Shown here: in pieces, positions 39,246 to 63,649 of the stretch
How positions within the stretch are numbered: the stretch's first letter is position 1
How the letters are laid out: every line of letters starts with the position of its first letter
Assembly (NCBI GenBank): GCA_013215165.1
Contig: JABSRG010000003.1
Span: 17,794-81,793, forward strand
Reading direction: 5' to 3'
Origin: Opitutales bacterium
GTDB taxonomy: Bacteria > Verrucomicrobiota > Verrucomicrobiia > Opitutales > JABSRG01
DNA length: 64,000 bases
Notes under the pieces: model-generated
Told to the model about the DNA's origin: nothing
What the model saw: only the letters and a program-made list of their open reading frames with translations
The model's database searches: none
Made by a program: the position numbers and the translations under genes

Positions 39246-39278
39246 ATCCGCGAATACACGCGAATGAACGCTAATTTT
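39246..39278 (+). repeat. family-1 repeat, solo arm (three 10-nt units)
   Basis: ATCCG CGAATACACG CGAATGAACG CTAATTTT, 8 nt after the ABC exporter stop. Confidence 0.75.
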
Positions 39279-39515
39279 CAGTGATCGATACTCTCCAGAG
39301 ACTCTTGCAACGCATCCGTTTTTTTCTAGGTGAGCCTGTCTACCTTGAAAATCCGAAATGCGCATTTGGTTTTTCAAGGTTAATTGAATGTTTCAGTGGC
39401 TAGCAATGCGCGGCTTAGCGTGGAAAATCGCTATCTGAAAACTGTTGATGAAGCGTTCATTCGCGGATGTTCAAAAGTGCTTTGCGCTTCGACTGTTTTT
39501 CTTCAAGTTCACGTA

Positions 39516-42185
39516 ATGGATCAAAAATCCCTGATCGATACAGTTGAGTGGAAACGCTTGCAGGCAGATGCCGCGCGGGAGAAAAACTGGAAGCGTTGGG
39601 GTCCTTATTTGGCAGAGCGACAATGGGCCACGGTGCGGGAGGATTACTCCGCAGACGGGGATGCCTGGGCTGCTTTCCCCTACGAACACTCAATCAGTCG
39701 AGCCTATCGGTGGGGTGAGGACGGCTTGTTGGGTTTTACTGATCGGCAATGCCGGTTGTGCATCGCGCCAGCCTTGTGGAATCACCAGGATCCGCATCTG
39801 AAAGAGCGACTTTTTGGGCTGACCGGTCCTGAGGGGAATCATGGCGAAGACGTTAAAGAGCTCTACTACTACCTAGATTCGCTCCCCACGCATGCTTATG
39901 CCAGGGCCCTCTATAAATATCCGCAGGCAGCCTTTCCCTATTCCTGGCTCCGGGAGGAGAACAGCCGCCGCGGTCTCAATGACTTGGAGTTTGAGATCGA
40001 GGATACGGGTGTCTTCCACGAGAGCCGCTACTTCGATGTCGACCTCGCCTACGCCAAGCAAGGACCGGATGATATCTTGATCACCTACACGGTGACCAAT
40101 CGTGGGCCCGATGCGGCCCCGGTTACTGTGTTACCCAGCATTTGGTTTCGAAATACATGGGCTTGGGGCTGCGAGCACGAGGGCTGTACGCTCAAGCCGC
40201 GAATTGAGATGGCTGATGATGCTGGACTGACCTTGAACCATGAGTCACTCGGGCCCTTCCGCTTTTGGGTAGAATCTGCGGATGGCGATCCCTGGCTATT
40301 TACTGACAATGAGAGTAACAACCCCCTGCTCTTTAACAGCGAGCAATACACGCCCTACGTGAAAGATGCCTTTCATCGTTTTGTAGTTCAGGGGGAACCG
40401 GATGCTGTAGATCCCGCCCAGCGTGGCACTAAGGCGGCTCGGCTGATCCGCATGCACCTTGCGCCGGGGGAGAGCCGCACAGTTCGTTGTCGTTTGGCCG
40501 CACAAAAGCAGGCTCCGGCTGATCCGTTTGCCGACTACGACGCTATTTTTGCCCGACGCAAAGCCGAGCATGACGCCTTCTATGCCGCGGTTATCGAGCA
40601 GAATGTCAGCGAGGACGACAAGAACATCGAGCGCCAGGCTTATGCAGGGCTCTTGTGGACCAAGCAGTTTTATCATATCTCCGTGGTCGATTGGCTCAAG
40701 GGAGATCCCGATACGGTGAAACCGCCCGAAAGCCGCCTTCAGGGGCGCAATAAAGACTGGAAGCACCTCTTCAATCGCGACGTCTTGAGTATGCCTGACA
40801 AATGGGAATACCCCTGGTTTGCCGCTTGGGATTTGGCCTTCCATATGATCCCGTTTTGTCGGATCGACCCCTGGTTCGCGAAAGGACAGCTCACCCTCAT
40901 GCTCCGCGAATGGTACATGCATCCGAACGGGCAAATCCCCGCCTATGAATGGAACTTTAGCGACGTGAATCCACCCGTTCATGCCTGGGCTGTCTGGCGG
41001 GTATATAAGATGACCGGACCGCGGGGGCATCGGGATACGTCGTTCCTAAAACATGCCTTCCTGAAGCTGTCGCTTAACTTTACATGGTGGGTAAATCGGA
41101 AGGACGAAACCGGTAAAAACCTCTTTGCTGGCGGGTTTCTCGGGCTGGATAATATCGGGGCCTTTGATCGTTCTAAACCTTTGCCCGACGGCACCTCACT
41201 CCAACAAGCCGACGGCACGGCCTGGATGGCATTCTATTGTTCTACGATGCTGAGTATGGCGCTGGAATTGGCGCAGGAGGACCGCGCCTATGGAGAGATG
41301 GCGAGTAAGTTCTTTGAGCATTTCATGAATATCGCAGACGCCATGAATACGGTGGGCGAGACCGGCCTTTGGGATGAGAAAACAGGGTTTTACGGCGATA
41401 AGCTGCGCACGCAGGACCACGAAATTCCCATCCGTATTCGTTCACTGGTAGGGCTCATTCCCTTGTTGGCAGTGGAGATTTTAGACGACGATGTGACGGA
41501 GAAACTACCCGGCTTCCGAAAGCGTATGCAGTGGTTTCTCGATCACCGGACAGATCTGCACGACCAAATTTCTATGATGGATTGTTCGGAGCGAGATGCG
41601 CGTCGGCATCTGCTCGCTATACCGTCGCGCGAACGCCTCGAACGCGTGCTCAGCGTTTTGTTCGATGAGGATGAATTTCTGTCTCCCTACGGCTTTCGTT
41701 CGCTTTCAAAATACCACGAAGATCATCCATTTGAATTACATCTAGCGGGTGAGACGCACCGCGTGGCCTATACGCCAGGCGAGTCGGATTCATGGCTGTT
41801 TGGCGGAAATTCGAATTGGCGCGGGCCTATATGGTTTCCTTTGAATTACATCCTAATCGAGGCCTTAGAACGCTATGGCTACTACTACGGTGACGACTTG
41901 AAGGTCGAGTTTCCTACCCGTAGTGGAAATTGGGTGACCTTGACCGAAGCAGCTCGCGGCGTGTCGCTCCGCCTCAACCGTATATTCGAAACAGATCAGG
42001 AAGGCGCGCGCCCGGCGCATGGAAAAAACCTGCTCTACCGTGACGATCCGCATTTCAAAGACCTCGTGCTCTTCTACGAATATTTCCAAGCGGACACCGG
42101 TCGCGGCCTCGGAGCTAGTCACCAGACCGGCTGGACGGCCTTGGTCACCGAACTGGTCCGCAAAGGTATTGGTGGGGAGATGTAA
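39516..42185 (+). CDS. GH63/MGH1-like (alpha/alpha)6 glucosidase
   Basis: About 890 aa. Segments such as KWEYPWFAAWDLAFH and FAGGFLGLDNIG resemble GH63-like glucosidases. ATG 39516 is preferred over the upstream start at 39384. Family assignment is motif-level only. Confidence 0.6.
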   Translation: MDQKSLIDTVEWKRLQADAAREKNWKRWGPYLAERQWATVREDYSADGDAWAAFPYEHSISRAYRWGEDGLLGFTDRQCRLCIAPALWNHQDPHLKERLFGLTGPEGNHGEDVKELYYYLDSLPTHAYARALYKYPQAAFPYSWLREENSRRGLNDLEFEIEDTGVFHESRYFDVDLAYAKQGPDDILITYTVTNRGPDAAPVTVLPSIWFRNTWAWGCEHEGCTLKPRIEMADDAGLTLNHESLGPFRFWVESADGDPWLFTDNESNNPLLFNSEQYTPYVKDAFHRFVVQGEPDAVDPAQRGTKAARLIRMHLAPGESRTVRCRLAAQKQAPADPFADYDAIFARRKAEHDAFYAAVIEQNVSEDDKNIERQAYAGLLWTKQFYHISVVDWLKGDPDTVKPPESRLQGRNKDWKHLFNRDVLSMPDKWEYPWFAAWDLAFHMIPFCRIDPWFAKGQLTLMLREWYMHPNGQIPAYEWNFSDVNPPVHAWAVWRVYKMTGPRGHRDTSFLKHAFLKLSLNFTWWVNRKDETGKNLFAGGFLGLDNIGAFDRSKPLPDGTSLQQADGTAWMAFYCSTMLSMALELAQEDRAYGEMASKFFEHFMNIADAMNTVGETGLWDEKTGFYGDKLRTQDHEIPIRIRSLVGLIPLLAVEILDDDVTEKLPGFRKRMQWFLDHRTDLHDQISMMDCSERDARRHLLAIPSRERLERVLSVLFDEDEFLSPYGFRSLSKYHEDHPFELHLAGETHRVAYTPGESDSWLFGGNSNWRGPIWFPLNYILIEALERYGYYYGDDLKVEFPTRSGNWVTLTEAARGVSLRLNRIFETDQEGARPAHGKNLLYRDDPHFKDLVLFYEYFQADTGRGLGASHQTGWTALVTELVRKGIGGEM

Positions 42186-42216
42186 TCCGCGAATACACGC
42201 GGATGAATACTAATTT
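42185..42216 (+). repeat. family-1 repeat, solo arm
   Basis: ATCCGCGAATACACGCGGATGAATACTAATTT. It begins at the last base of the glucosidase TAA stop. Confidence 0.75.
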
Positions 42217-42267
42217 CTTTGATATTCCGGTGCATACTAAGGATTGAAAAAGCCGTTCATTCGTCAC

Positions 42268-56266: not shown

Positions 56267-56302
56267 ATCCGCTAAGACACGCGAATGAACACTAATTTTT
56301 TT
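56267..56302 (+). repeat. family-1 repeat, forward arm
   Basis: ATCCGCTAAGACACGCGAATGAACACTAATTTTTTT. An inverted partner arm lies at 57004-57033. Confidence 0.7.
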
Positions 56303-56382
56303 GAAAGAGAAAACTGGATAGTGCCATCATCGAAAGGTAAAGGCCCCCAAACATTTACATTAATCGGCAGATAATATTCCTG

Positions 56383-56730
56383 TTATTTTACCAGTCTCGG
56401 GATTGCCCCCACCGGGAAAAACCGGAACGCCGAGTCCTGCACCCATTTGAGCAACACGGCTTGGTTTCCATGTAGGACTTGGGCTCTGTAGAAGGTTGGC
56501 CGACCTACTTGAATCACCACTTCGAAACCCGCAGTTTTGAGGAGCTCAATATCATCTAAAGCTGATTGGGCTACGATTTCAGGTTTGTCGTGCGAAATAT
56601 CGATGTCGCGTGAGTAGCGAATTGTGTCAGCTGCCTCATTGAGAACCGTGGCACCGAACACAAAGCTGTCCTGAGAACGAGAAGGCTACAAAGCTGCAAA
56701 GATTGCCTTTTGAAATGCACTTATTGGCAT
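56383..56730 (-). pseudogene. AbiEii/DUF1814-like nucleotidyltransferase toxin remnant (in-frame TAG, C-terminally truncated)
   Basis: The frame reads MPISAFQKAIFAAL-TAG(56686-56688)-PSRSQDSFVFGATVLNEAADTIRYSRDIDISHD...LLKWVQDSAFRFFPV. GGTAL...R.S.DIDf and W..DsafRFFP are patterns I associate with AbiEii-type NTases. The product would be about 115 aa, against about 250 for intact family members. Confidence 0.5.
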
Positions 56731-56960
56731 AATCGATCTGCCAATAAGAACGCTCGTTGATCCCCGTGTTTCCTGAGTCCGTCAATAATCAGAGGTAGAC
56801 TTTCTTTGGTCACTTCGAAATTCGGAGCAAACGACCAGAAGCAGAGCGTCCGATACTGTTGAAAGCTTCTTTGGCTAAAGCTATGTGTCGAGCATCTGTA
56901 TGAGTTGTAGGCACCTGAATGTTATCTTGGGTAACTTTGGCTACATCTTCAAGACTATGC
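56721..56960 (-). pseudogene. frameshifted upstream partner ORF (possible antitoxin remnant)
   Basis: Two adjacent frames read ...HIALAKEAFNSIGRSASGRLLRISK-stop and APNFEVTKESLPLIIDGLRKHGDQRAFLLADRLCQ-stop. The second stop overlaps the toxin-remnant ATG by 10 nt, as in TA operons. No family assignment was possible. Confidence 0.3.
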
Positions 56961-57003
56961 TCGAGACAAGGCCTGGACAGATAAAGGCGGTGCTATTCAA
57001 AAG

Positions 57004-57033
57004 ATTCGCGTTAGTTCGCGTCCATTAGCGGAT
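57004..57033 (-). repeat. family-1 repeat, inverted arm
   Basis: The reverse complement ATCCGCTAATGGACGCGAACTAACGCGAAT matches the arm consensus. Confidence 0.7.
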
Positions 57034-57058: not shown

Positions 57059-57535
57059 TCACTCACCGCGAACTAAGCTGACCATCTCGGGTGACACCCC
57101 GCTCGCTCCGTCGCCAAATGCGTTGCGGGTGTAGGAGACGACTGCGGCGACTTGTTGGTTACTGAGGTGGTCGTGCGGGAGCATACGGACCGGCCACTTG
57201 GATGGTGCGCCACCCAGGGCATCACTGCCCCGCAATACCCAGTCGATGAGGACATAGGGATCACCAGCGAGTTTTTCGGATCCAATGAGTGACGGTTGCA
57301 TCCCCGGCATACCTCGGCCGTCGGCCATGTGACAGGCTAAGCAAGATCGAGTGTAGACACGCTTACCTTGATCAATCACAGCTTGGCTGACTGTGACCGT
57401 AGCGGGATCGATGATGGCGGGTAGGGTGGAGAGGTCGACCGGTTCAGTGGCCTCCTCGGTTTTTCCACCACCACACGCGGAAAACGATAGGGCGATGATT
57501 GAAATTAGAGCAGAGACGGAGGTTCTCATGCTCAC
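57059..57535 (-). CDS. lipoprotein c-type cytochrome (class I)
   Basis: Lipobox ALSFSAC, haem site CLACH with a distal Met region. Its start overlaps the gpmI stop by 4 nt. Confidence 0.8.
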
Positions 57536-59109
57536 ACAATCAGCGATTTCCCTGTCATTTCCACCGGTTTTTCAATTTTCATGAGATCAAGGATGGTGGG
57601 CGCTATGTCGGCCAGGCGATTATCCTCTTGGAATAGCGTCTTCTCTTTGACCGCTGCGCCATACAGCACGAGTTCGACAGGATTGAGCGTGTGTGACGTA
57701 TGAATCGCATCAGAGTCGGGGAAGCCCATCTGATCGCAGTTGCCGTGATCTGCGGTCACGACAGCAACACCGCCTATTTTGTCGATGGCTTTACAGAGTT
57801 TTTCTACGCCACGATCTACGATCTCACAGGCACGCACACAGGCAGGAATACTTCCAGTATGCCCGACCATGTCAGGGTTGGCAAAGTTAACTACGATCAG
57901 TCCGAAGCGTTCGCTCAAGATGGCTTCTTCAGCGGCATCCATCACGCCTTGAGCCGACATCTCGGGAGCCTCGTCATAGGTGGAAACGCCTGGACTCGGC
58001 AAGACTTGGCGCTCTTCCTTGGAAAAGGATTCGTCGCGGTAGTCATTAAAGAAAAATGTGACGTGGGGGTATTTTTCGGTCTCAGCGCAGCGGAACTGCC
58101 GGATACCCTTATCGGCGAGAAAACTGCCAAGGATGTTAGGCATTTTGGGCGGTTTCGGGAAGACGATGTCAGGGCACAGGCCCTTCTGGTAGTCTGTCAT
58201 GGTGGCATAAACCAGATCGAGTTTTTCACCGCGATCAAAGCCGTCGAAGTCATCGGTAATGAGTGCGGCGGTGATTTCTCGTGGTCGGTCGCCACGGAAG
58301 TTAAAGAAGACCACGGAATCACCATCGGAAAACGTAGCACGGGGCTCACCCGATTCATCGGCGATCCAAGTAGGGGGCACAAATTCGTCGCCTTTCATCG
58401 ACTCACCCGCCGGAGCATCATAATAACCTTGAATGGCGGCTTCCGCCGAGATCGCGATGGGTGCATCTTTGCCGGTCAGCATATTGTAAGCTCTCTCTAC
58501 CCGGTCCCAGCGTTTATCGCGGTCCATCACCCAAAAACGGCCGCAGACCGAGGCGATTTGGCCGATGCCGATCTCCTTACACTTGGCCTCTAGATCCTTA
58601 ATGTAGCCCAAACCGCTGGTAGGTGCGGTATCGCGCCCGTCGGTAAATGCATGGATGTAGACTTCCTCAATTTCTGCCATCCACGCGATCTCAAGGAGCT
58701 TGTAAAGGTGTTCGATCATGGCATGGACTCCGGCATCGGAGACGAGTCCCATCAGATGGAGTTTCCCGGAGCCTGATTTTGCCCGGTCAAAGGCTTTTTT
58801 CAGCGCAGGGTTTTCCAGCATAGCACCAAGATCCTCCAGGCCCTTGTTGATGCGCATGATTTCCTGATCCACGATCCGGCCTGCTCCGATGTTTTGATGA
58901 CCGACCTCGCTGTTGCCCATGATCCCTGGTGGTACGCCCACATCGGGCCCGTGCGCGGCCAACTCCGTACGTGGCCACTCAGCGGAAAGATGATCGCAAA
59001 AGGGGGTATCTGCCTGAGCGATTGCGTTGAAAGGTGCCAGTTCCGGGACGTTGTTCACGCCCCAGCCATCACGGATTGCGAGAAGGACCGGTGTCATAAT
59101 CTCGACCAT
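57532..59109 (-). CDS. gpmI: 2,3-bisphosphoglycerate-independent phosphoglycerate mutase
   Basis: 525 aa. N-terminus LLAIRDGWG, plus [13 protein letters not shown] and ADHGN motifs. The start could instead be ATG 59097. Confidence 0.95.
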
Positions 59110-59293
59110 TGCGGGCGTGAGCCCTCAGGCAAGACGGGAATCGGCGAAATCACGCATCTCTTCAGGAAAAATTATCCGCGAATCCGATTGAGTGCTTACG
59201 GACTGATGGTCCTCGTAGGAGACATCTCTACAAAGCTGGGAACGCCGTGCCCCAGCTCGGCTCTTCGAAAACCATGTAAGTCAGTTGAAGGAT

Positions 59294-59437
59294 AATCCGC
59301 TAATGAACGCTAATTCACGCGAATGGTTTAATGCATTTTGGCCGCGTGTATTTGTGGTGCCTTTTCAACATTTTTAGAGTGGGCCGTCAGTCTGTGTTTC
59401 TGCCCAACATTAGCGTGAGTTCGTGTCTATTAGCGGA
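59294..59437 (+). repeat. family-1 repeat, complete 144-bp element with ~30-bp terminal inverted repeats (copy A)
   Basis: Left arm ATCCGCTAATGAACGCTAATTCACGCGAAT. The right arm ATTAGCGTGAGTTCGTGTCTATTAGCGGAT is its imperfect inverse. By eye it is roughly 80 percent identical to copy B over its full length. Confidence 0.8.
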
Positions 59438-59489
59438 TCTGAAACAGGTTGGTTTTGTCGGTGAGTTATGTCCCGTTGATGTATGAATT

Positions 59490-59542
59490 GCTAAAATTTT
59501 AACTTTTAGCTTGCGTGAGTCTGAATTGTTAGAGAACTAACA
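59490..59542 (+). promoter_or_regulatory. two palindromes upstream of blaI (candidate operators)
   Basis: GCTAAAA-N7-TTTTAGC at 59490-59510. TGTTAG-AGAA-CTAACA at 59527-59542, which ends 4 nt before the blaI ATG. Confidence 0.3.
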
Positions 59543-59546
59543 CTTC

Positions 59547-59957
59547 ATGCCAAAAGATGATTTAGATGCCCTGAGTCGACGGGAGCGGCAGATTATGGAA
59601 ATCCTGATTTCGCAAGGCAGTGGCTCTGCAGCCGACGTGCGAGAGGCTCTATCTGACGAGATCAGTGATTCAGCTATTCGGACTTTTTTACGTATCCTCG
59701 TTCAGAAGGGCCATGTGGTGCATCGTAAAGAGGGGAGGAAGTTTATTTACTCCCCGACCACCTCACCCGCCAAGGCGAAGCGCCGTGCGGTCCGCGATGT
59801 GGTGGCACGTCTCTTCGACGGATCTCTCGCCGGAGCCGTCGCTGCTTTCGTCGGCGATAGAAACGACACACTCACTCCTGAAGAAATCGGCCGAATTGAG
59901 CAGCTGATCGAGCAGGCTAAACAGCGCCAATCCTCAAACACTACCCCAGAAAGATGA
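59547..59957 (+). CDS. BlaI/MecI/CopY-family transcriptional repressor
   Basis: 136 aa. N-terminal wHTH pattern LSRRERQIMEILISQGSGSAADVREAL ... IRTFLRILVQKGHVVHRKEGRKFIYSP. Confidence 0.85.
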   Translation: MPKDDLDALSRRERQIMEILISQGSGSAADVREALSDEISDSAIRTFLRILVQKGHVVHRKEGRKFIYSPTTSPAKAKRRAVRDVVARLFDGSLAGAVAAFVGDRNDTLTPEEIGRIEQLIEQAKQRQSSNTTPER

Positions 59958-61468
59958 TTCCTGAATCCCTGTCATTATTCGCGGACATCACCATGAAGAC
60001 ATCCGCGATGCTTCTGCTCGCTTGGTTATTCGATCGCCTGGGAAAATTTTCATCGTCGCAGGTCGCTGCATTATGGACGATCGCGTTTGCCGCAGTCGCG
60101 GCTACGCCACTAACCCACTGGTTGCCGAGCCCGATATCGGTTTGGGAGAGCATGTTTTTCGATGCTGAGGAAACTTTTGTAGTATCTGTCGTTTTCTCGG
60201 ATTCCCAAACCTCAGACACTCGGACGATCGTTAATAACTCAGCAACGGGTTCCGTGCTTCATAGCATCCACTTCGGTTGGTATCTGTGGGGCGCCTGGGG
60301 CGCGGGGGTGTTCTTCTTTCTTTGGCGCTGGGTGCGTGGTTATTTGAGAGCGCGCAGGATCACTCTGGATTCGGTTTCGTTGAACGACTCGGAAATTAGG
60401 CTGCCCTTGTCAGAAGACGATGTGATCTCATCCGAGCACATACGGGTGAGCGATGCGGTGCCTTCGCCCTTTCTATTCGGTTATTTGAACCCGACCCTGA
60501 TGCTACCTGCTTCAGCTGATCGCTGGTCCACCGGAAAACTCGTTGCTGTTTTCGCTCATGAGAAAGCTCATGTGCGAAGAAAAGACCTATGGGTTCGAGC
60601 ACTCGCGGAGGCGGTGACTGTAGTCTTTTGGTTCAATCCACTGGTCTGGCTCGCAGCCCGCCGGTTGAGACTAGCCCAGGAGAAAGCCTGTGATGATCTT
60701 GCTCTCGAATCAGGTGTGGAGCCTCTCGCCTACACATCGACACTAGCACAGATGGCGAGTGCTCTCATAGACGACTTACCCGACGCCTCGACCGTCTCTA
60801 TGGCGAGAAAGTCAACACTACGCAGTCGGGTTGAGGCGGTTTTGGATATGAGTCAAAAGCGTTCTCCTGCCGGCGGCAAATTTTGGTTAGCTTGTATGCT
60901 CACCACGGGATTCTTAATTTCGACAACAGGTGCTCAGGAAGTTCGGAGTTCTGATACCACTTCCACGCCGATCGATCCGCTTACAGGACCTGTTGAGCCT
61001 GAAGAGAACGTAGTGGAAATACGCATGAAGGTCATTCAGGGAGTGCGTTCGACGGTTGAAAATGGAGCTTCCGCACCTCCACTTTATTTGACTGGCGCAA
61101 TCGGCGGGGTTCAATTACCCGAAGATATTGGTGATGCTTTGGCTGCTCCGCCTATCACGATGCTGGAGAATCGCACCGGGGTCATTACGGTTGGCGATGA
61201 TTATCTGGATAACGGCGTGGAGAAAACTGTGGGTCTCCAGACGAAAGTTACCGTTACAAATCTGGAAGATAAGTCCTATCTAGTTCAGTTATCTGTTACG
61301 CTGTCGGCACTGCAAGAGGCAGGGAACGGTGAACTCGATTACAAAGAGAAAACCACTCCGTTTGAGATCGTTATGGAATCTGGGCAATATGCCCTCATTC
61401 CTGGTATTGAAACACCTGACGAAGACCAAGGAGGTATTACTCTGCTGATGGAACTCACCCGACCATAG
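59954..61468 (+). CDS. BlaR1-like M56 peptidase signal transducer with a non-PBP C-terminal domain
   Basis: 4-nt overlap with the repressor gene. N-terminal TM helices, zinc motif FAHEKAHVRRKD, and a further TM helix. The last ~200 aa is beta-rich, has no SxxK motif, and has a secretin-core-like stretch (PPITMLENRTGVITVGDDY ... VGLQTKVTVTNLEDKSYLVQLSVTLS). Confidence 0.8.
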   Translation: MIPESLSLFADITMKTSAMLLLAWLFDRLGKFSSSQVAALWTIAFAAVAATPLTHWLPSPISVWESMFFDAEETFVVSVVFSDSQTSDTRTIVNNSATGSVLHSIHFGWYLWGAWGAGVFFFLWRWVRGYLRARRITLDSVSLNDSEIRLPLSEDDVISSEHIRVSDAVPSPFLFGYLNPTLMLPASADRWSTGKLVAVFAHEKAHVRRKDLWVRALAEAVTVVFWFNPLVWLAARRLRLAQEKACDDLALESGVEPLAYTSTLAQMASALIDDLPDASTVSMARKSTLRSRVEAVLDMSQKRSPAGGKFWLACMLTTGFLISTTGAQEVRSSDTTSTPIDPLTGPVEPEENVVEIRMKVIQGVRSTVENGASAPPLYLTGAIGGVQLPEDIGDALAAPPITMLENRTGVITVGDDYLDNGVEKTVGLQTKVTVTNLEDKSYLVQLSVTLSALQEAGNGELDYKEKTTPFEIVMESGQYALIPGIETPDEDQGGITLLMELTRP

Positions 61469-61503
61469 CTCGGCGACAACCATGTCAGCCAGTTCCATTG
61501 ATT

Positions 61504-61647
61504 ATCCGCTAATGAACGCTAATTCACGCGAATAGTTTGATGTACTTTGGCTGCATGTATTTGTTGTGCCTTTTCGACGTCTTTCGAATGGATCTTCAGT
61601 CTAGGTTTCTGCCCATCATTCGCGTAAATTCGCGTTTATTAGCGGAT
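61504..61647 (+). repeat. family-1 repeat, complete 144-bp element (copy B)
   Basis: Same orientation and architecture as copy A. Its right end overlaps the TAA stop of the MATE gene by 1 nt. Confidence 0.8.
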
Positions 61648-63065
61648 TATCTCTCCTCGTCGACCAAGGATCTTCGGATCACCCCGCGGGTCCGGGAGGC
61701 CATAATGATCGCCGAGACCCAGAGGCCTGCGGAAAGAGCGGCCCACATGCCGGCGCCCTCGAGAGCGAATCCGATGTGTGCGAGAGGCTGGAGGAAATCC
61801 GGGACGCGCGAGAGGTCGAGGCTAGTGCCGAAGGTGAGGAAGAAACAGAGTGGAATGGCGAAGCACCAGAAGATGAAGAAGCTCAGGATCGTCGGTACGC
61901 GGATGTCATTATAGCCGCGGAGGATGCCCATGAGGATAATGTTACAGCCATCGCCGAGTTGGAAAAAGGCGGCGATGAGCAAGAATGTCGCTGCCAGCGC
62001 GGCGACTTGAGCCGTCTCGGCCAGTCCGCGATCAAGAAAGATCCAGGGCAACTGGTGGCGGAAGGCGGCCAGCACGGTGGCTGGGCAGGCCATGATGATG
62101 ATCACAAAAAGGACGTTGGCCCATGCTATACGGGATGCACGTTGGTTTTGATGCGCACCGAGAGCCTGGCCGATGCGGATGCTGATAGCAAAGCTGAGTC
62201 CCAGGGGGATCATAAAGGCTAGGCCCACGAGGCTAATCGCAATATTGTGCGCGGCTAAGCTAACCGCTCCGATCCATCCCATCATGATCGCCGCAACATT
62301 GAAGGAGGCGACCTCGAAAGAAATCTGAATGCCCGTGCCGATTCCTGTCTTAACAATATCCTTCACGGCGCGCCACTGTGGCAGAATCAATTCGCGGAGG
62401 CTCCAGTTGCGTTCCAGGAGCCCCGCTTTTTCGTAGCCAATCCACATCAGAACAAAGCAGATGATGCGGGCTAATAGGGTAGCCAAGCCTGCTCCATCCA
62501 AACCCATCGCCGGTGCGCCAAGGTTACCGAAAATAAAGATCCAATTGAGGAAAACATTTACAGGGACCACAGCTAGGGTCCAGATGAGAGGAATCCATGG
62601 GCGGTCGATAGCCTCGCCATACGATTTCAGCGCCGCCATCATGAGCACGGGTGCCGAGGACCAGCCTAACAAAATGATGTAGGAGCGTGCGTGGCCCAGA
62701 ACGGCGGGCTCCTGGCCAAAATATTCGGCGACGGGTAGAAGGGCGTGCAAGGCCACTGCTAAGAGAACACCGAGCCAGAATGTAGCGTTGATTCCAGCTC
62801 CCAGCGTGGCGCGCTGGCCGGCCGAATCACCGGCACCATAGGCCCGAGCCGTGAAAATAGATACGGCGATGCTCAACCCAAAGCCGACCATAAAAAAGAG
62901 CATATAGAAGTTTGCTGCAAATGCTGCCGCTGCGAGCTCATCCACGCCGACACGTCCGATCATGGCTGCATCGACGAGCTGAGTCAGGTGCACAGCCATC
63001 TGGCCCATCATCATGGGAAAAGCGAGTTTGAACGTATGCCAAACCTCTGAGCGGAGCGAGTTCAC
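61647..63065 (-). CDS. MATE-family efflux transporter
   Basis: 472 aa with 12 TM helices. N-terminal pattern FKLAFPMMMGQMAVHLTQLVDAAMIGRVG is typical of NorM/DinF-type MATE proteins. Confidence 0.9.
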   Translation of the reverse strand: MNSLRSEVWHTFKLAFPMMMGQMAVHLTQLVDAAMIGRVGVDELAAAAFAANFYMLFFMVGFGLSIAVSIFTARAYGAGDSAGQRATLGAGINATFWLGVLLAVALHALLPVAEYFGQEPAVLGHARSYIILLGWSSAPVLMMAALKSYGEAIDRPWIPLIWTLAVVPVNVFLNWIFIFGNLGAPAMGLDGAGLATLLARIICFVLMWIGYEKAGLLERNWSLRELILPQWRAVKDIVKTGIGTGIQISFEVASFNVAAIMMGWIGAVSLAAHNIAISLVGLAFMIPLGLSFAISIRIGQALGAHQNQRASRIAWANVLFVIIIMACPATVLAAFRHQLPWIFLDRGLAETAQVAALAATFLLIAAFFQLGDGCNIILMGILRGYNDIRVPTILSFFIFWCFAIPLCFFLTFGTSLDLSRVPDFLQPLAHIGFALEGAGMWAALSAGLWVSAIIMASRTRGVIRRSLVDEER

Positions 63066-63115: not shown

Positions 63116-63628
63116 TTATTTCGGAGGGTGGTCTGCTTTCCCAAAGAGACGCTTTGCTTCTGGCTTAGTGAGCAGAATCAGCGAACAAACTCCAAGGGCT
63201 GTGCCTAAGGGAACGGAAAGGCAGGCGAAGATAGCGGCGACGACACAGGTGGTATGGTGCTTGAATTTGATGAAACACCACCCCACATAGCAAAATGCCG
63301 CAACGTGCACGACGATCAGGACAGCAACGGAGATTTCGAGTACGCGGATGATCTGTTTGAGATCAATGCCAAGATCTAGCTGTCGGCTCAAGGCGTCCAA
63401 GTCAGGTAGGAAAAGGCTGTGTAATCCGATAAAAAAAAGCCCGGGCAATGCGATGAGGCCGAAGAGAATATAAAATACTCCAGCGAGCTTGAGCCTATCG
63501 TGAGTGACTTTTAGATCAGGATCGGACACAGTTTTTTTAGCATCGGCAGAATCGAGTAATGGCCAACTGTTTAATTCTGATGTCGAAAGAGGCGTGGGTG
63601 TCGATGAGTTATTGATCCGCGAATACAC
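63116..63628 (-). CDS. hypothetical membrane protein (4 TM helices)
   Basis: 170-aa ORF with four hydrophobic helices. The annotated GTG start lies inside a family-1 repeat arm, so the true start is uncertain. Confidence 0.5.
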   Translation of the reverse strand: MYSRINNSSTPTPLSTSELNSWPLLDSADAKKTVSDPDLKVTHDRLKLAGVFYILFGLIALPGLFFIGLHSLFLPDLDALSRQLDLGIDLKQIIRVLEISVAVLIVVHVAAFCYVGWCFIKFKHHTTCVVAAIFACLSVPLGTALGVCSLILLTKPEAKRLFGKADHPPK

Positions 63629-63649
63629 GCGAATGGACGCTAATTTTTT
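63615..63649 (+). repeat. family-1 repeat, solo arm
   Basis: ATCCGCGAATACACGCGAATGGACGCTAATTTTTT. Confidence 0.75.

Follow-up and report, generated by a model that had tools for sequence, protein, structure and literature searches.

Do two short repeats that bracket a gene pair mark it as a mobile cassette? The question arises from a 64-kb stretch of DNA (64,000 nucleotides, referred to below as the window) from contig JABSRG010000003.1 of an Opitutales bacterium (Verrucomicrobiota). Here two 144-nt inverted-repeat elements, A and B, stand in the same orientation on either side of a blaI-blaR1-like pair, a repressor gene followed by the gene of a sensor protease. A preliminary description likened the geometry to that of miniature inverted-repeat transposable elements (MITEs) and proposed that the bracketed module might be excised or inverted by recombination, or that the elements may simply prefer intergenic space. 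All coordinates count from the first letter of the window.

The answer for this locus is no, a deflationary one: the repeats are not the mark of a mobile, resistance-type cassette around blaI-blaR1. What they lead to is a motif of wider occurrence. The terminal arms of A and B belong to a dispersed intergenic motif of many bacterial phyla and at least one archaeon, and the full form of this motif flanks a gene encoding a small protein of the GxxExxY family. A and B themselves are rather probably diverged, gene-less palindromic repeats placed at transcription-unit boundaries, similar to the REPINs built from repetitive extragenic palindromic (REP) sequences, descended from units of arms and a GxxExxY gene and dependent on a protein for their spread.

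Architecture of elements A and B

A repeat search of the window detects a direct repeat of 148 nt with 84% identity (59291-59438 against 61500-61647). The two elements and the sequence that they share on their left are as follows.

59295-59438, plus strand: element A, 144 nt (left arm 59295-59324; core 59325-59408, 84 nt; right arm 59409-59438)
61504-61647, plus strand: element B, 144 nt (left arm 61504-61533; core of 84 nt; right arm 61618-61647)
59260-59294, plus strand: left extension of A, with a ~27-nt block GCTC..CGA.AACCATGT.AG.CAGTT common to copy B
61468-61503, plus strand: left extension of B, beginning at the blaR1 stop codon

The preliminary description of two 144-bp copies, equally oriented and about 80% identical, agrees with these data (overall identity ~82-84%). 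Its coordinates were exact for B and 1 nt too low at the start and end of A, and the core that it put at about 85 bp measures 84 nt in both copies. The terminal inverted repeats of about 30 bp that it saw, made of 10-nt CGC(G/T)AAT units, are recovered by the repeat search as 31 nt with 81% identity in A (59295-59325 / 59408-59438) and 34 nt with 88% identity in B (61500-61533 / 61618-61651). Each arm consists of three 10-nt units, ATCCGCKAAT-NNACGCKAAT-NNACGCKAAT, in which heptamers of the form CGC(G/T)AAT are phased at 10 bp, and the arm ends read ATCCGC...GCGGAT. A single arm is not palindromic by itself and lacks a GTAG/CGTC head. Between A and B, the left arms agree at 30/30 nt, and one perfect run between the copies reaches about 31 nt.

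The likeness between the copies extends ~35 nt to the left of the left arm, giving a duplicated unit of ~180 nt (59260-59438 against 61468-61647, 81.7% by blastn). The local score of the two left flanks is 29, where shuffles reach 19 at the 99th percentile; on the right, the flanks are unrelated. Among the arm elements, A and B are each other's closest match and, because the core and the left flank are common to both, they are copies of one subfamily. The arm pattern is matched nine times in the window where dinucleotide shuffles of the window predict 0.00 matches, which excludes chance. The arms of A and B fit the pattern exactly, and they match a profile of 108 arms from other genomes with E values of 1e-7 to 1e-10. 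They also agree with a wider definition of such arms, namely inverted sets of two or more periodic 9-10-nt units of the type C(G/A)C(G/T/A)(A/G)A(T/G) with ATCC(G/A)C at the end.

Neither element encodes a protein: the 84-nt cores are non-coding, and the 51-aa open reading frames (ORFs) inside the elements are poorly conserved between the copies. Folding of the whole element, one of the checks proposed at the outset, predicts strong RNA folds both for A (-51 kcal/mol, z = -4.3) and for B (-53.9 kcal/mol, z = -6.8), with z values of -4.3 to -7.1 across both strands. No canonical terminator (a hairpin followed by a T-run) and no outer inverted repeat beyond the arms were detected at A or B. Target-site duplications were sought at both elements and are absent, the flanks being GGATA and CTGAA for A, TGATT and TATCT for B. 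Rfam gives no family match at A or B, either at gathering thresholds or at E<=1, and recognises only two tRNAs in the window. The arm sequences have no match in the searchable literature beyond unrelated primers.

A periodic arm shared by distant phyla

A scan with a degenerate arm pattern, taking one genome per species, returned at least 120 loci. Among the matches listed, exact arms are found in Spirochaetota, Anaerolineae and other Chloroflexota, Hydrogenedentota, Verrucomicrobiota, Planctomycetota, Nitrospirota, Acidobacteriota, Gemmatimonadota, Gammaproteobacteria and a Methanotrichaceae archaeon. The units in these listed loci form solo arms, tandem arrays that reach ~20 units and often a '+++---' arrangement, in which a loop of 10-120 nt separates three units from three inverted ones; A and B are built in this last way. 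Conservation is far stronger for the 7-nt unit and its 10-bp phasing than for the pairing of arm with arm, and this suggests recognition by a protein.

In several loci (L003, L026, L033, L079, L097 and L115), long arrays consist of nothing but the 10-nt unit, repeated head to tail up to ~20 times, so that the unit can expand like a microsatellite. At L026, a (GAACGCGAAT)n array adjoins a GxxExxY gene.

Two further observations concern mobile elements near or around the arms. The Spirochaetia MS495-2 and MS499-44 carry a multicopy MITE of ~170 nt with outer inverted repeats TACTSCTTTRGG...CCYAAAGSAGTA that are flanked by TA on both sides, as in IS630/Tc1-like elements. A hairpin of decamer arms forms its centre, and the number of units in the right arm varies among the copies.

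Loci with the spirochaete MITE: L008, L010, L030, L040, L041, L051, L054-L056, L063, L072, L073, L075, L083, L084, L089, L091, L092

In the Spirochaetota metagenome-assembled genome (MAG) MFD03726.bin.1.50, an IS110-family transposase gene (PF01548 and PF02371) is present at L004 (810-3547) and at L048 (4620-6064), the two being 99.8% identical. At both loci the gene is ~140 nt away from the inner end of an arm, with the same orientation towards it, and the copy in L004 has an inverted arm on either side; the genes are inserted beside arms and are not bounded by them. IS110/IS1111 elements have a habit of inserting into REP-like palindromes, which the placement by the arms resembles.

A small nuclease-like gene between inverted arms

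When the ORFs of the arm loci were clustered, one small family stood out: proteins of ~130 aa that start with M(N/D)(A/T)NERELILKDEVY and belong to TIGR04256 GxxExxY (E 1.8e-41) and PF13366 PDDEXK_3 (E 3.9e-39). Among the matches listed, 9 loci contain this gene, in every case with inverted arms close to it on both sides, and it is the only cargo found between arms that are 350-600 nt apart. The start codon and the first seven codons lie inside the left arm, where ATGAACGCGAATGAACGCGAA encodes MNANERE.

Since these loci had been chosen by the motif, the reverse sampling was made as well, starting from the protein. An independent set of 80 GxxExxY genes was collected from metagenomes by protein similarity alone, 72 of them with both flanks usable. 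In 51 of the 72, the inverted repeat between the upstream and downstream flanks scores above the 99th percentile of shuffles (median score 13.5 versus 7). These repeats are again made of periodic units of 9-10 nt, the types of which differ by GxxExxY subfamily: CGCGAAT/CGCTAAT, CACGAAT, CACGAAG, CGCAGAT and CACAAAT. The unit type tracks the protein clade, with the nearest protein neighbour sharing the type in 29/39 cases compared with 24% by chance.

The invariant residues of the protein, E34 (the E of GxxExxY), D74, E84 and K86, make up the catalytic pattern of PD-(D/E)XK enzymes. An AlphaFold2 model (mean predicted local confidence, pLDDT, 90.4) has its closest structural matches in Cas4 SSO0001, lambda exonuclease and nuclease domains of the RecB type, and weaker ones in tRNA-splicing and homing endonucleases. 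No solved structure matches GxxExxY by sequence, and the fold search gave generic PD-(D/E)XK nucleases only. Judged by its residues and its model, GxxExxY looks like an active nuclease.

The family is large, with more than 5500 clusters in this subfamily at E<1e-30; it was not found in viral contigs. With a query from a Planctomycetia MAG (L023), copies of 84-86% identity were obtained from Phycisphaerales (Planctomycetota), Latescibacteria and Euryarchaeota, and these identities across domains point to recent horizontal transfer or else to binning errors. The matches annotated from Euryarchaeota/Methanotrichaceae archaea are P0198 and P0253; those from Phycisphaerales/Latescibacteria are P0172 and P0193. 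In a survey of the PD-(D/E)XK superfamily from 2012, PDDEXK_3 is a family of unknown function with multiple transfers between bacteria and archaea (PMC3424549). GxxExxY is otherwise barely mentioned in the searchable literature, and no mention there concerns repeats.

Some of the flanks are themselves repetitive. One GxxExxY gene, at L218 (1-1600; JGI Ga0265595_1001601) and L219-L226, has before it about seven tandem repeats of 70 nt, each with a left arm, and after it about seven tandem repeats of ~100 nt, each with a right arm. The copy number of the arrays in L218-L226 differs among samples, and most of the contigs end within the arrays.

Arm sites at gene boundaries in the window

The window contains 9 full arms and 1 partial arm at 7 sites, five of them besides A and B, and these numbers stand for this genome as read over 64 kb plus about 9 kb. 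A profile of the arms of other genomes recovers the same nine arms and the two-unit partial arm at 39451-39468. The arm sites other than A and B comprise the following features.

39246-39468, plus strand: third inverted-arm element, 223 nt (full left arm 39246-39275, two-unit right arm 39451-39468)
42185-42214, plus strand: solo arm, its first base in the TAA stop of a GH63-like gene, in the convergent gap with an HPr kinase gene
56267-56296, plus strand: arm forming a wide inverted pair with 57004-57033, enclosing 707 nt of degenerate coding sequence
57004-57033, minus strand: arm 25 nt downstream of a cytochrome c gene, partner of 56267-56296
63615-63644, plus strand: solo arm between an acetyltransferase gene and a 137-aa ORF, both on the minus strand

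All the sites lie between genes or overlap a stop codon by 1 nt, and 5/7 are situated 0-35 nt past a stop codon. The element at 39246-39468 has a core unrelated to that of A and B and stands between an ABC exporter gene and the GH63-like gene; a degenerate partner of the solo arm at 42185 may lie at about 42254-42265. From 56 to 64 kb, each transcription-unit boundary has its arm element, in the order orf92 / cytochrome c-gpmI / blaI-blaR1 / MATE gene-orf137. The bracketing of blaI-blaR1 follows from this distribution, because arm elements fill almost every inter-operon gap in this part of the window. A preference for intergenic space, the alternative already allowed for in the preliminary description, fits the seven inter-gene sites. 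The same description held that dispersed REP-like sequences with neither polymorphism nor a link to module boundaries would speak against a role in moving the module; this is essentially the picture within the 64 kb, a segment rather than the whole genome.

The interval 56299-57003 holds coding-like sequence broken over three minus-strand frames, including a 92-aa ORF (56383-56661). This ORF was considered as a hidden GxxExxY and rejected: it has no Pfam or NCBIfam match, the hhalign probability is 0.2%, and the interval is frameshifted and degenerate. It is probably a decayed gene other than GxxExxY.

Arms also interfere with the reading of genes. The mechanical ORF of the GH63-like gene, starting from TTG at 39384, crosses the right arm of the 39246-39468 element and reads it as 'EAFIRG'; the true start is probably the ATG at 39516. 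In the TAA codons of the GH63-like gene (42183-42185) and of the MATE gene (61647-61649), the last A is at the same time the first base of an arm (TA/ATCCGC), and the TAATCCGC junction recurs in other phyla. Such a junction could arise from a preference at insertion or from arms that provide the stop codon.

The bracketed module and its stability

The genes between and next to the two elements are listed here.

57532-59109, minus strand: gpmI, divergent from blaI, the gap between them holding A
59547-59957, plus strand: blaI-like repressor gene, 136 aa (PF03965 Penicillinase_R, E 4.5e-27)
59954-61468, plus strand: blaR1-like gene for an M56 membrane metalloprotease, 504 aa (PF05569 Peptidase_M56, E 5.6e-33)
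61647-63065, minus strand: MATE gene, convergent with blaR1

That the copies flank exactly one module, a repressor plus an M56 sensor-protease, was recognised from the start, and the two Pfam assignments confirm it. A lies 108 nt upstream of blaI in the divergent gpmI/blaI gap. B and its extension occupy the entire convergent gap between blaR1 and the MATE gene, with the last base of B inside the MATE stop codon (1-nt overlap). A HEKAH (HExxH) motif is visible in the blaR1-like translation, and the protein has a 100% match in an Opitutales MAG (Verrucomicrobiota), the next homologue being 27% identical. Its C-terminal domain is an orphan without close homologue and is not penicillin-binding (PF00905). 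The GC content of the module equals that of its flanks. The blaI-blaR1 pair is bracketed cargo and not part of the repeat system.

Population data were obtained from 13 contigs, 97-100% identical to the window, that exact-protein look-ups of BlaI, GpmI and MATE retrieved from marine metagenome assemblies and the MAG GCA_022446765.1. A and/or B is present in each contig wherever it covers an element site, the 3 contigs that span both sites carry A, the module and B, and the two elements are invariant in all 13. The comparison of strains for presence or absence of the module, proposed in the preliminary description, thus reveals no such variation and no deletion junction among the 13 contigs. 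The exact look-up of the BlaR1 protein matched no record. For the nearest MATE relatives (52% identical, L123 and L124) there is no synteny and there are no arms, and no empty site was found in the collections reached.

In the Pfam annotation, the stretch from -6.5 to +12 kb contains no call of a transposase, integrase or recombinase, in agreement with the initial remark that no transposase is present. Of the two rearrangements that had been suggested, excision is not borne out, given the 13 contigs without a deletion junction, the GC content shared with the flanks and an identity between A and B of only ~82%; inversion is impossible, since direct repeats cannot invert the segment between them. 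Nothing shows that A and B make blaI-blaR1 mobile: the idea is unsupported, and the elements are ordinary occupants of inter-operon gaps.

The population contigs display two clusters of variation within the neighbouring genes. At window positions 60758-61281 (blaR1 codons 269-443), ~50 differences in 525 nt (~10%) separate the contigs, compared with <0.1% elsewhere. They form two haplotypes, with 29 amino-acid changes among 46 altered codons, and many assemblies break or hold an N-gap inside this segment. A diversity-generating retroelement was considered as the source and rejected: the window has no template repeat, and the substitutions are mostly transitions. The segment looks like a recombined or diversifying sensor domain. 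In gpmI (58387-58552), 16 single-nucleotide polymorphisms within 165 nt are common to L129 and L131, and the 10 from 58441 onward are also present in L130; this cluster looks like an imported recombination tract.

Origin of the elements and competing explanations

With 84-nt non-coding cores and no GxxExxY gene, A and B are gene-less forms. We infer that they are non-autonomous, REPIN-like derivatives of arm-GxxExxY units and that a GxxExxY protein would mobilise them. Copying of A into B or of B into A, or of a common source into both, would have taken ~35 nt of left flank along, and the two would persist at transcription-unit boundaries, where they do little harm. Their spread or maintenance would depend on some protein able to recognise the phased units, whether the DNA is duplex or folded into a hairpin; the most probable candidate is a GxxExxY nuclease whose gene would lie elsewhere in the genome. 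Once in place, the hairpin of B in the 3' untranslated regions of blaR1 and the MATE gene, and A in the control region of blaI and gpmI, may affect transcript ends or expression. A broader proposal is more tentative and, in our estimate, somewhat doubtful: decamer arms and GxxExxY could constitute a two-part selfish or domesticated system of bacteria and archaea, similar to REPINs and their REP-associated tyrosine transposases (RAYTs) and served by a minimal PD-(D/E)XK nuclease of the Cas4/RecB kind. In such a system, the nuclease would recognise the 10-bp-phased heptamers, full units would pass between phyla and domains and leave gene-less hairpins as non-autonomous offspring.

Several observations weigh against a GxxExxY-dependent origin of A and B. 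No GxxExxY gene is present in the 64-kb window (by tblastn) or in ~9 kb beyond it, so that a trans-acting partner in this organism has to be assumed. Insertion polymorphism, empty sites and target-site duplications were not found for A, B or any gene-less hairpin, so that these are at most putatively mobile. In the search for further 144-nt copies that had been proposed, the arm proved dispersed (nine full arms in 64 kb), the A/B core matched nothing else among the loci examined, and the exact left arm had 0 hits in JGI metagenomes, so that the copy number of the 144-nt subfamily is known only as two. Complementarity between the arms of one element at variable positions is 0.70, compared with 0.64 to the arms of other genomes; this indicates no clear selection on hairpin pairing, and a conserved RNA or DNA structure is not claimed. 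The match of unit type and protein clade may be due to co-evolution or, equally, to common descent of linked DNA. Lastly, the hairpin inside the TA-flanked spirochaete MITE shows that arm hairpins can spread by means unrelated to GxxExxY.

The alternative with the most in its favour, in our view still unlikely, is a host-domesticated element, in which the arms would bind a DNA- or RNA-binding protein of the host, or the hairpins would serve at transcript ends, whether as terminator, mRNA stabiliser or RNase III site, as proposed for REP sequences and bacterial interspersed mosaic elements, GxxExxY merely sharing the motif. The position of most arm sites just after stop codons, the exact filling of the convergent gap by B, the strong folds on both strands and the invariance of the elements across the population would all suit such a function, and so would a unit and phasing conserved beyond pairing, a property that suggests protein recognition. 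However, A and B have no canonical terminator and no Rfam match, A stands in a divergent promoter gap without an upstream 3' end, an identical motif in distant phyla and archaea is hard to attribute to one host factor without horizontal transfer, and the arms are tightly linked to one mobile-looking gene. If the arms were instead palindromic operator sites of the adjacent repressor, as the location of A 108 nt upstream of blaI and the palindromic relation of the arms to each other might suggest, they should be absent from the boundaries of unrelated genes in the window and from the hundreds of other settings that contain them in further phyla, nor should B lie downstream of the operon; by the distribution of the arms, this BlaI-operator explanation looks already refuted, and we give it next to no credence.

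The two explanations closest to the preliminary description both fare poorly. A classical MITE would be a deletion derivative of an insertion sequence (IS) with a DDE transposase, mobilised in trans via its terminal inverted repeats. The small size (<300 bp), the terminal inverted repeats and the lack of a coding sequence preserve the MITE-like geometry first noted, and a true, TA-flanked MITE of spirochaetes carries such arms internally. But A and B lack both target-site duplications and an outer inverted repeat. The check for a transposase or Y1-type enzyme with the same termini was negative: none of about 220 loci shows an IS with these ends, and the gene between the arms is that of a 130-aa PD-(D/E)XK nuclease, GxxExxY, and not of a DDE transposase. 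Moreover, solo arms and tandem arm arrays are atypical of MITEs. Because target-site duplications and an IS with matching ends are both missing, A and B are not classical MITEs, an origin that we hold to be highly improbable. It is highly improbable, too, that the direct copies form a recombination cassette, which would let blaI-blaR1 excise or would mark the insertion of a circular unit by homologous or site-specific recombination, as in integron cassettes or the translocatable units of IS26. The direct orientation, the common core and left flank, the perfect run of 30-31 nt in the left arms, the bracketing of exactly one operon and the orphan status of blaR1 (nearest homologue 27%) were the grounds for considering it. 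Against these stand the population contigs, in which the elements are present at all covered sites and no deletion junction occurs, the GC content of the module, the lack of an integrase or recombinase within -6.5 to +12 kb and the absence of attC core sites. The neighbouring units, cytochrome c-gpmI and MATE gene-orf137, are bracketed by arm elements as well, and at 18% divergence between A and B, RecA-mediated exchange would be rare.

Implications

Beyond the locus, one short periodic motif is shared by distant phyla and archaea and is physically coupled to a very abundant family of small nucleases, a pairing that is apparently undescribed so far. If the nuclease does act on the arms, this would be a second, independent invention of the REPIN/RAYT lifestyle with a different catalytic fold. 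The two-part system, if true, would give a first function to a very large family of 'unknown function', would explain the odd spurious ORFs of the 'IRVHSR / NANERE' type and would offer a tractable model for the sequence-specific recognition of phased repeats. On the practical side, gene callers turn arms into spurious ORFs and mis-set start codons, as in the GH63-like gene, and arms break short-read assemblies.

Comparison with known systems

The bracketed genes resemble BlaI/BlaR1 (MecI/MecR1) in the order of a Penicillinase_R repressor gene and an overlapping M56 membrane protease gene, and differ from them in the C-terminus of the sensor, which has no close homologue and is not PF00905. 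As for the elements, integron cassettes are bounded by attC palindromes of ~60-140 nt with R''/R' core sites (RYYYAAC / GTTRRRY). A and B share with them the imperfect palindromes in direct orientation around a gene unit, but R''/R' core sites, an integrase, attI and a cassette array are lacking here, and the elements are also present at the boundaries of housekeeping genes. The intervening sequences of 23S rRNA in Leptospira and Coxiella contain a small ORF, for a four-helix-bundle 'S23p' protein, between inverted repeats. Arm-GxxExxY units are alike in having a small orphan gene within inverted repeats, in the long transcript stem that is possible and in their patchy occurrence across phyla; the protein family and the repeat are different, and the arms are intergenic rather than inside an rRNA gene.

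Bacterial MITEs such as Correia, ERIC/IRU and RUP are non-coding, intergenic sequences of 100-250 nt with terminal inverted repeats that can form long hairpins in transcripts. A and B correspond to this description in size, terminal inverted repeats, lack of coding sequence, intergenic position and long hairpins. The decamer arms differ from MITEs in having no target-site duplication, no cognate DDE IS and no outer terminal inverted repeat, and they are internally periodic and also occur solo or in tandem.

The nearest parallel is that of REP sequences and REPINs with their RAYTs (Bertels & Rainey 2011, PMC3116915; PMC3337134; Di Nocera et al. 2013, PMC3733652). Both systems comprise short, dispersed extragenic repeats that occur as an inverted doublet with a spacer, forming a long hairpin, and also as singlets (here at 42185 and 63615). 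In both, a small nuclease or transposase gene is itself flanked by inverted repeats, the repeats lie at gene ends without target-site duplications, and the type of repeat goes with the protein clade. In number, REPINs reach tens to hundreds of copies in a host genome, and the 64 kb plus about 9 kb read here gave 9 full arms and 1 partial arm. The differences are those of components and reach. A REP is an imperfect palindrome of 20-40 nt with a GTAG or CGTC head, whereas the arm is a set of three 10-nt-phased heptamers. RAYTs are HUH/Y1 enzymes, a family that did not appear in the ORF clustering of the arm loci among the matches listed, and the arm-flanked gene encodes the ~130-aa PD-(D/E)XK (Cas4/RecB-like) protein GxxExxY. 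REPs are specific to a species or genus, while decamer arms are common to phyla and archaea, and only in the arm-GxxExxY units does the start codon of the gene lie inside the repeat.

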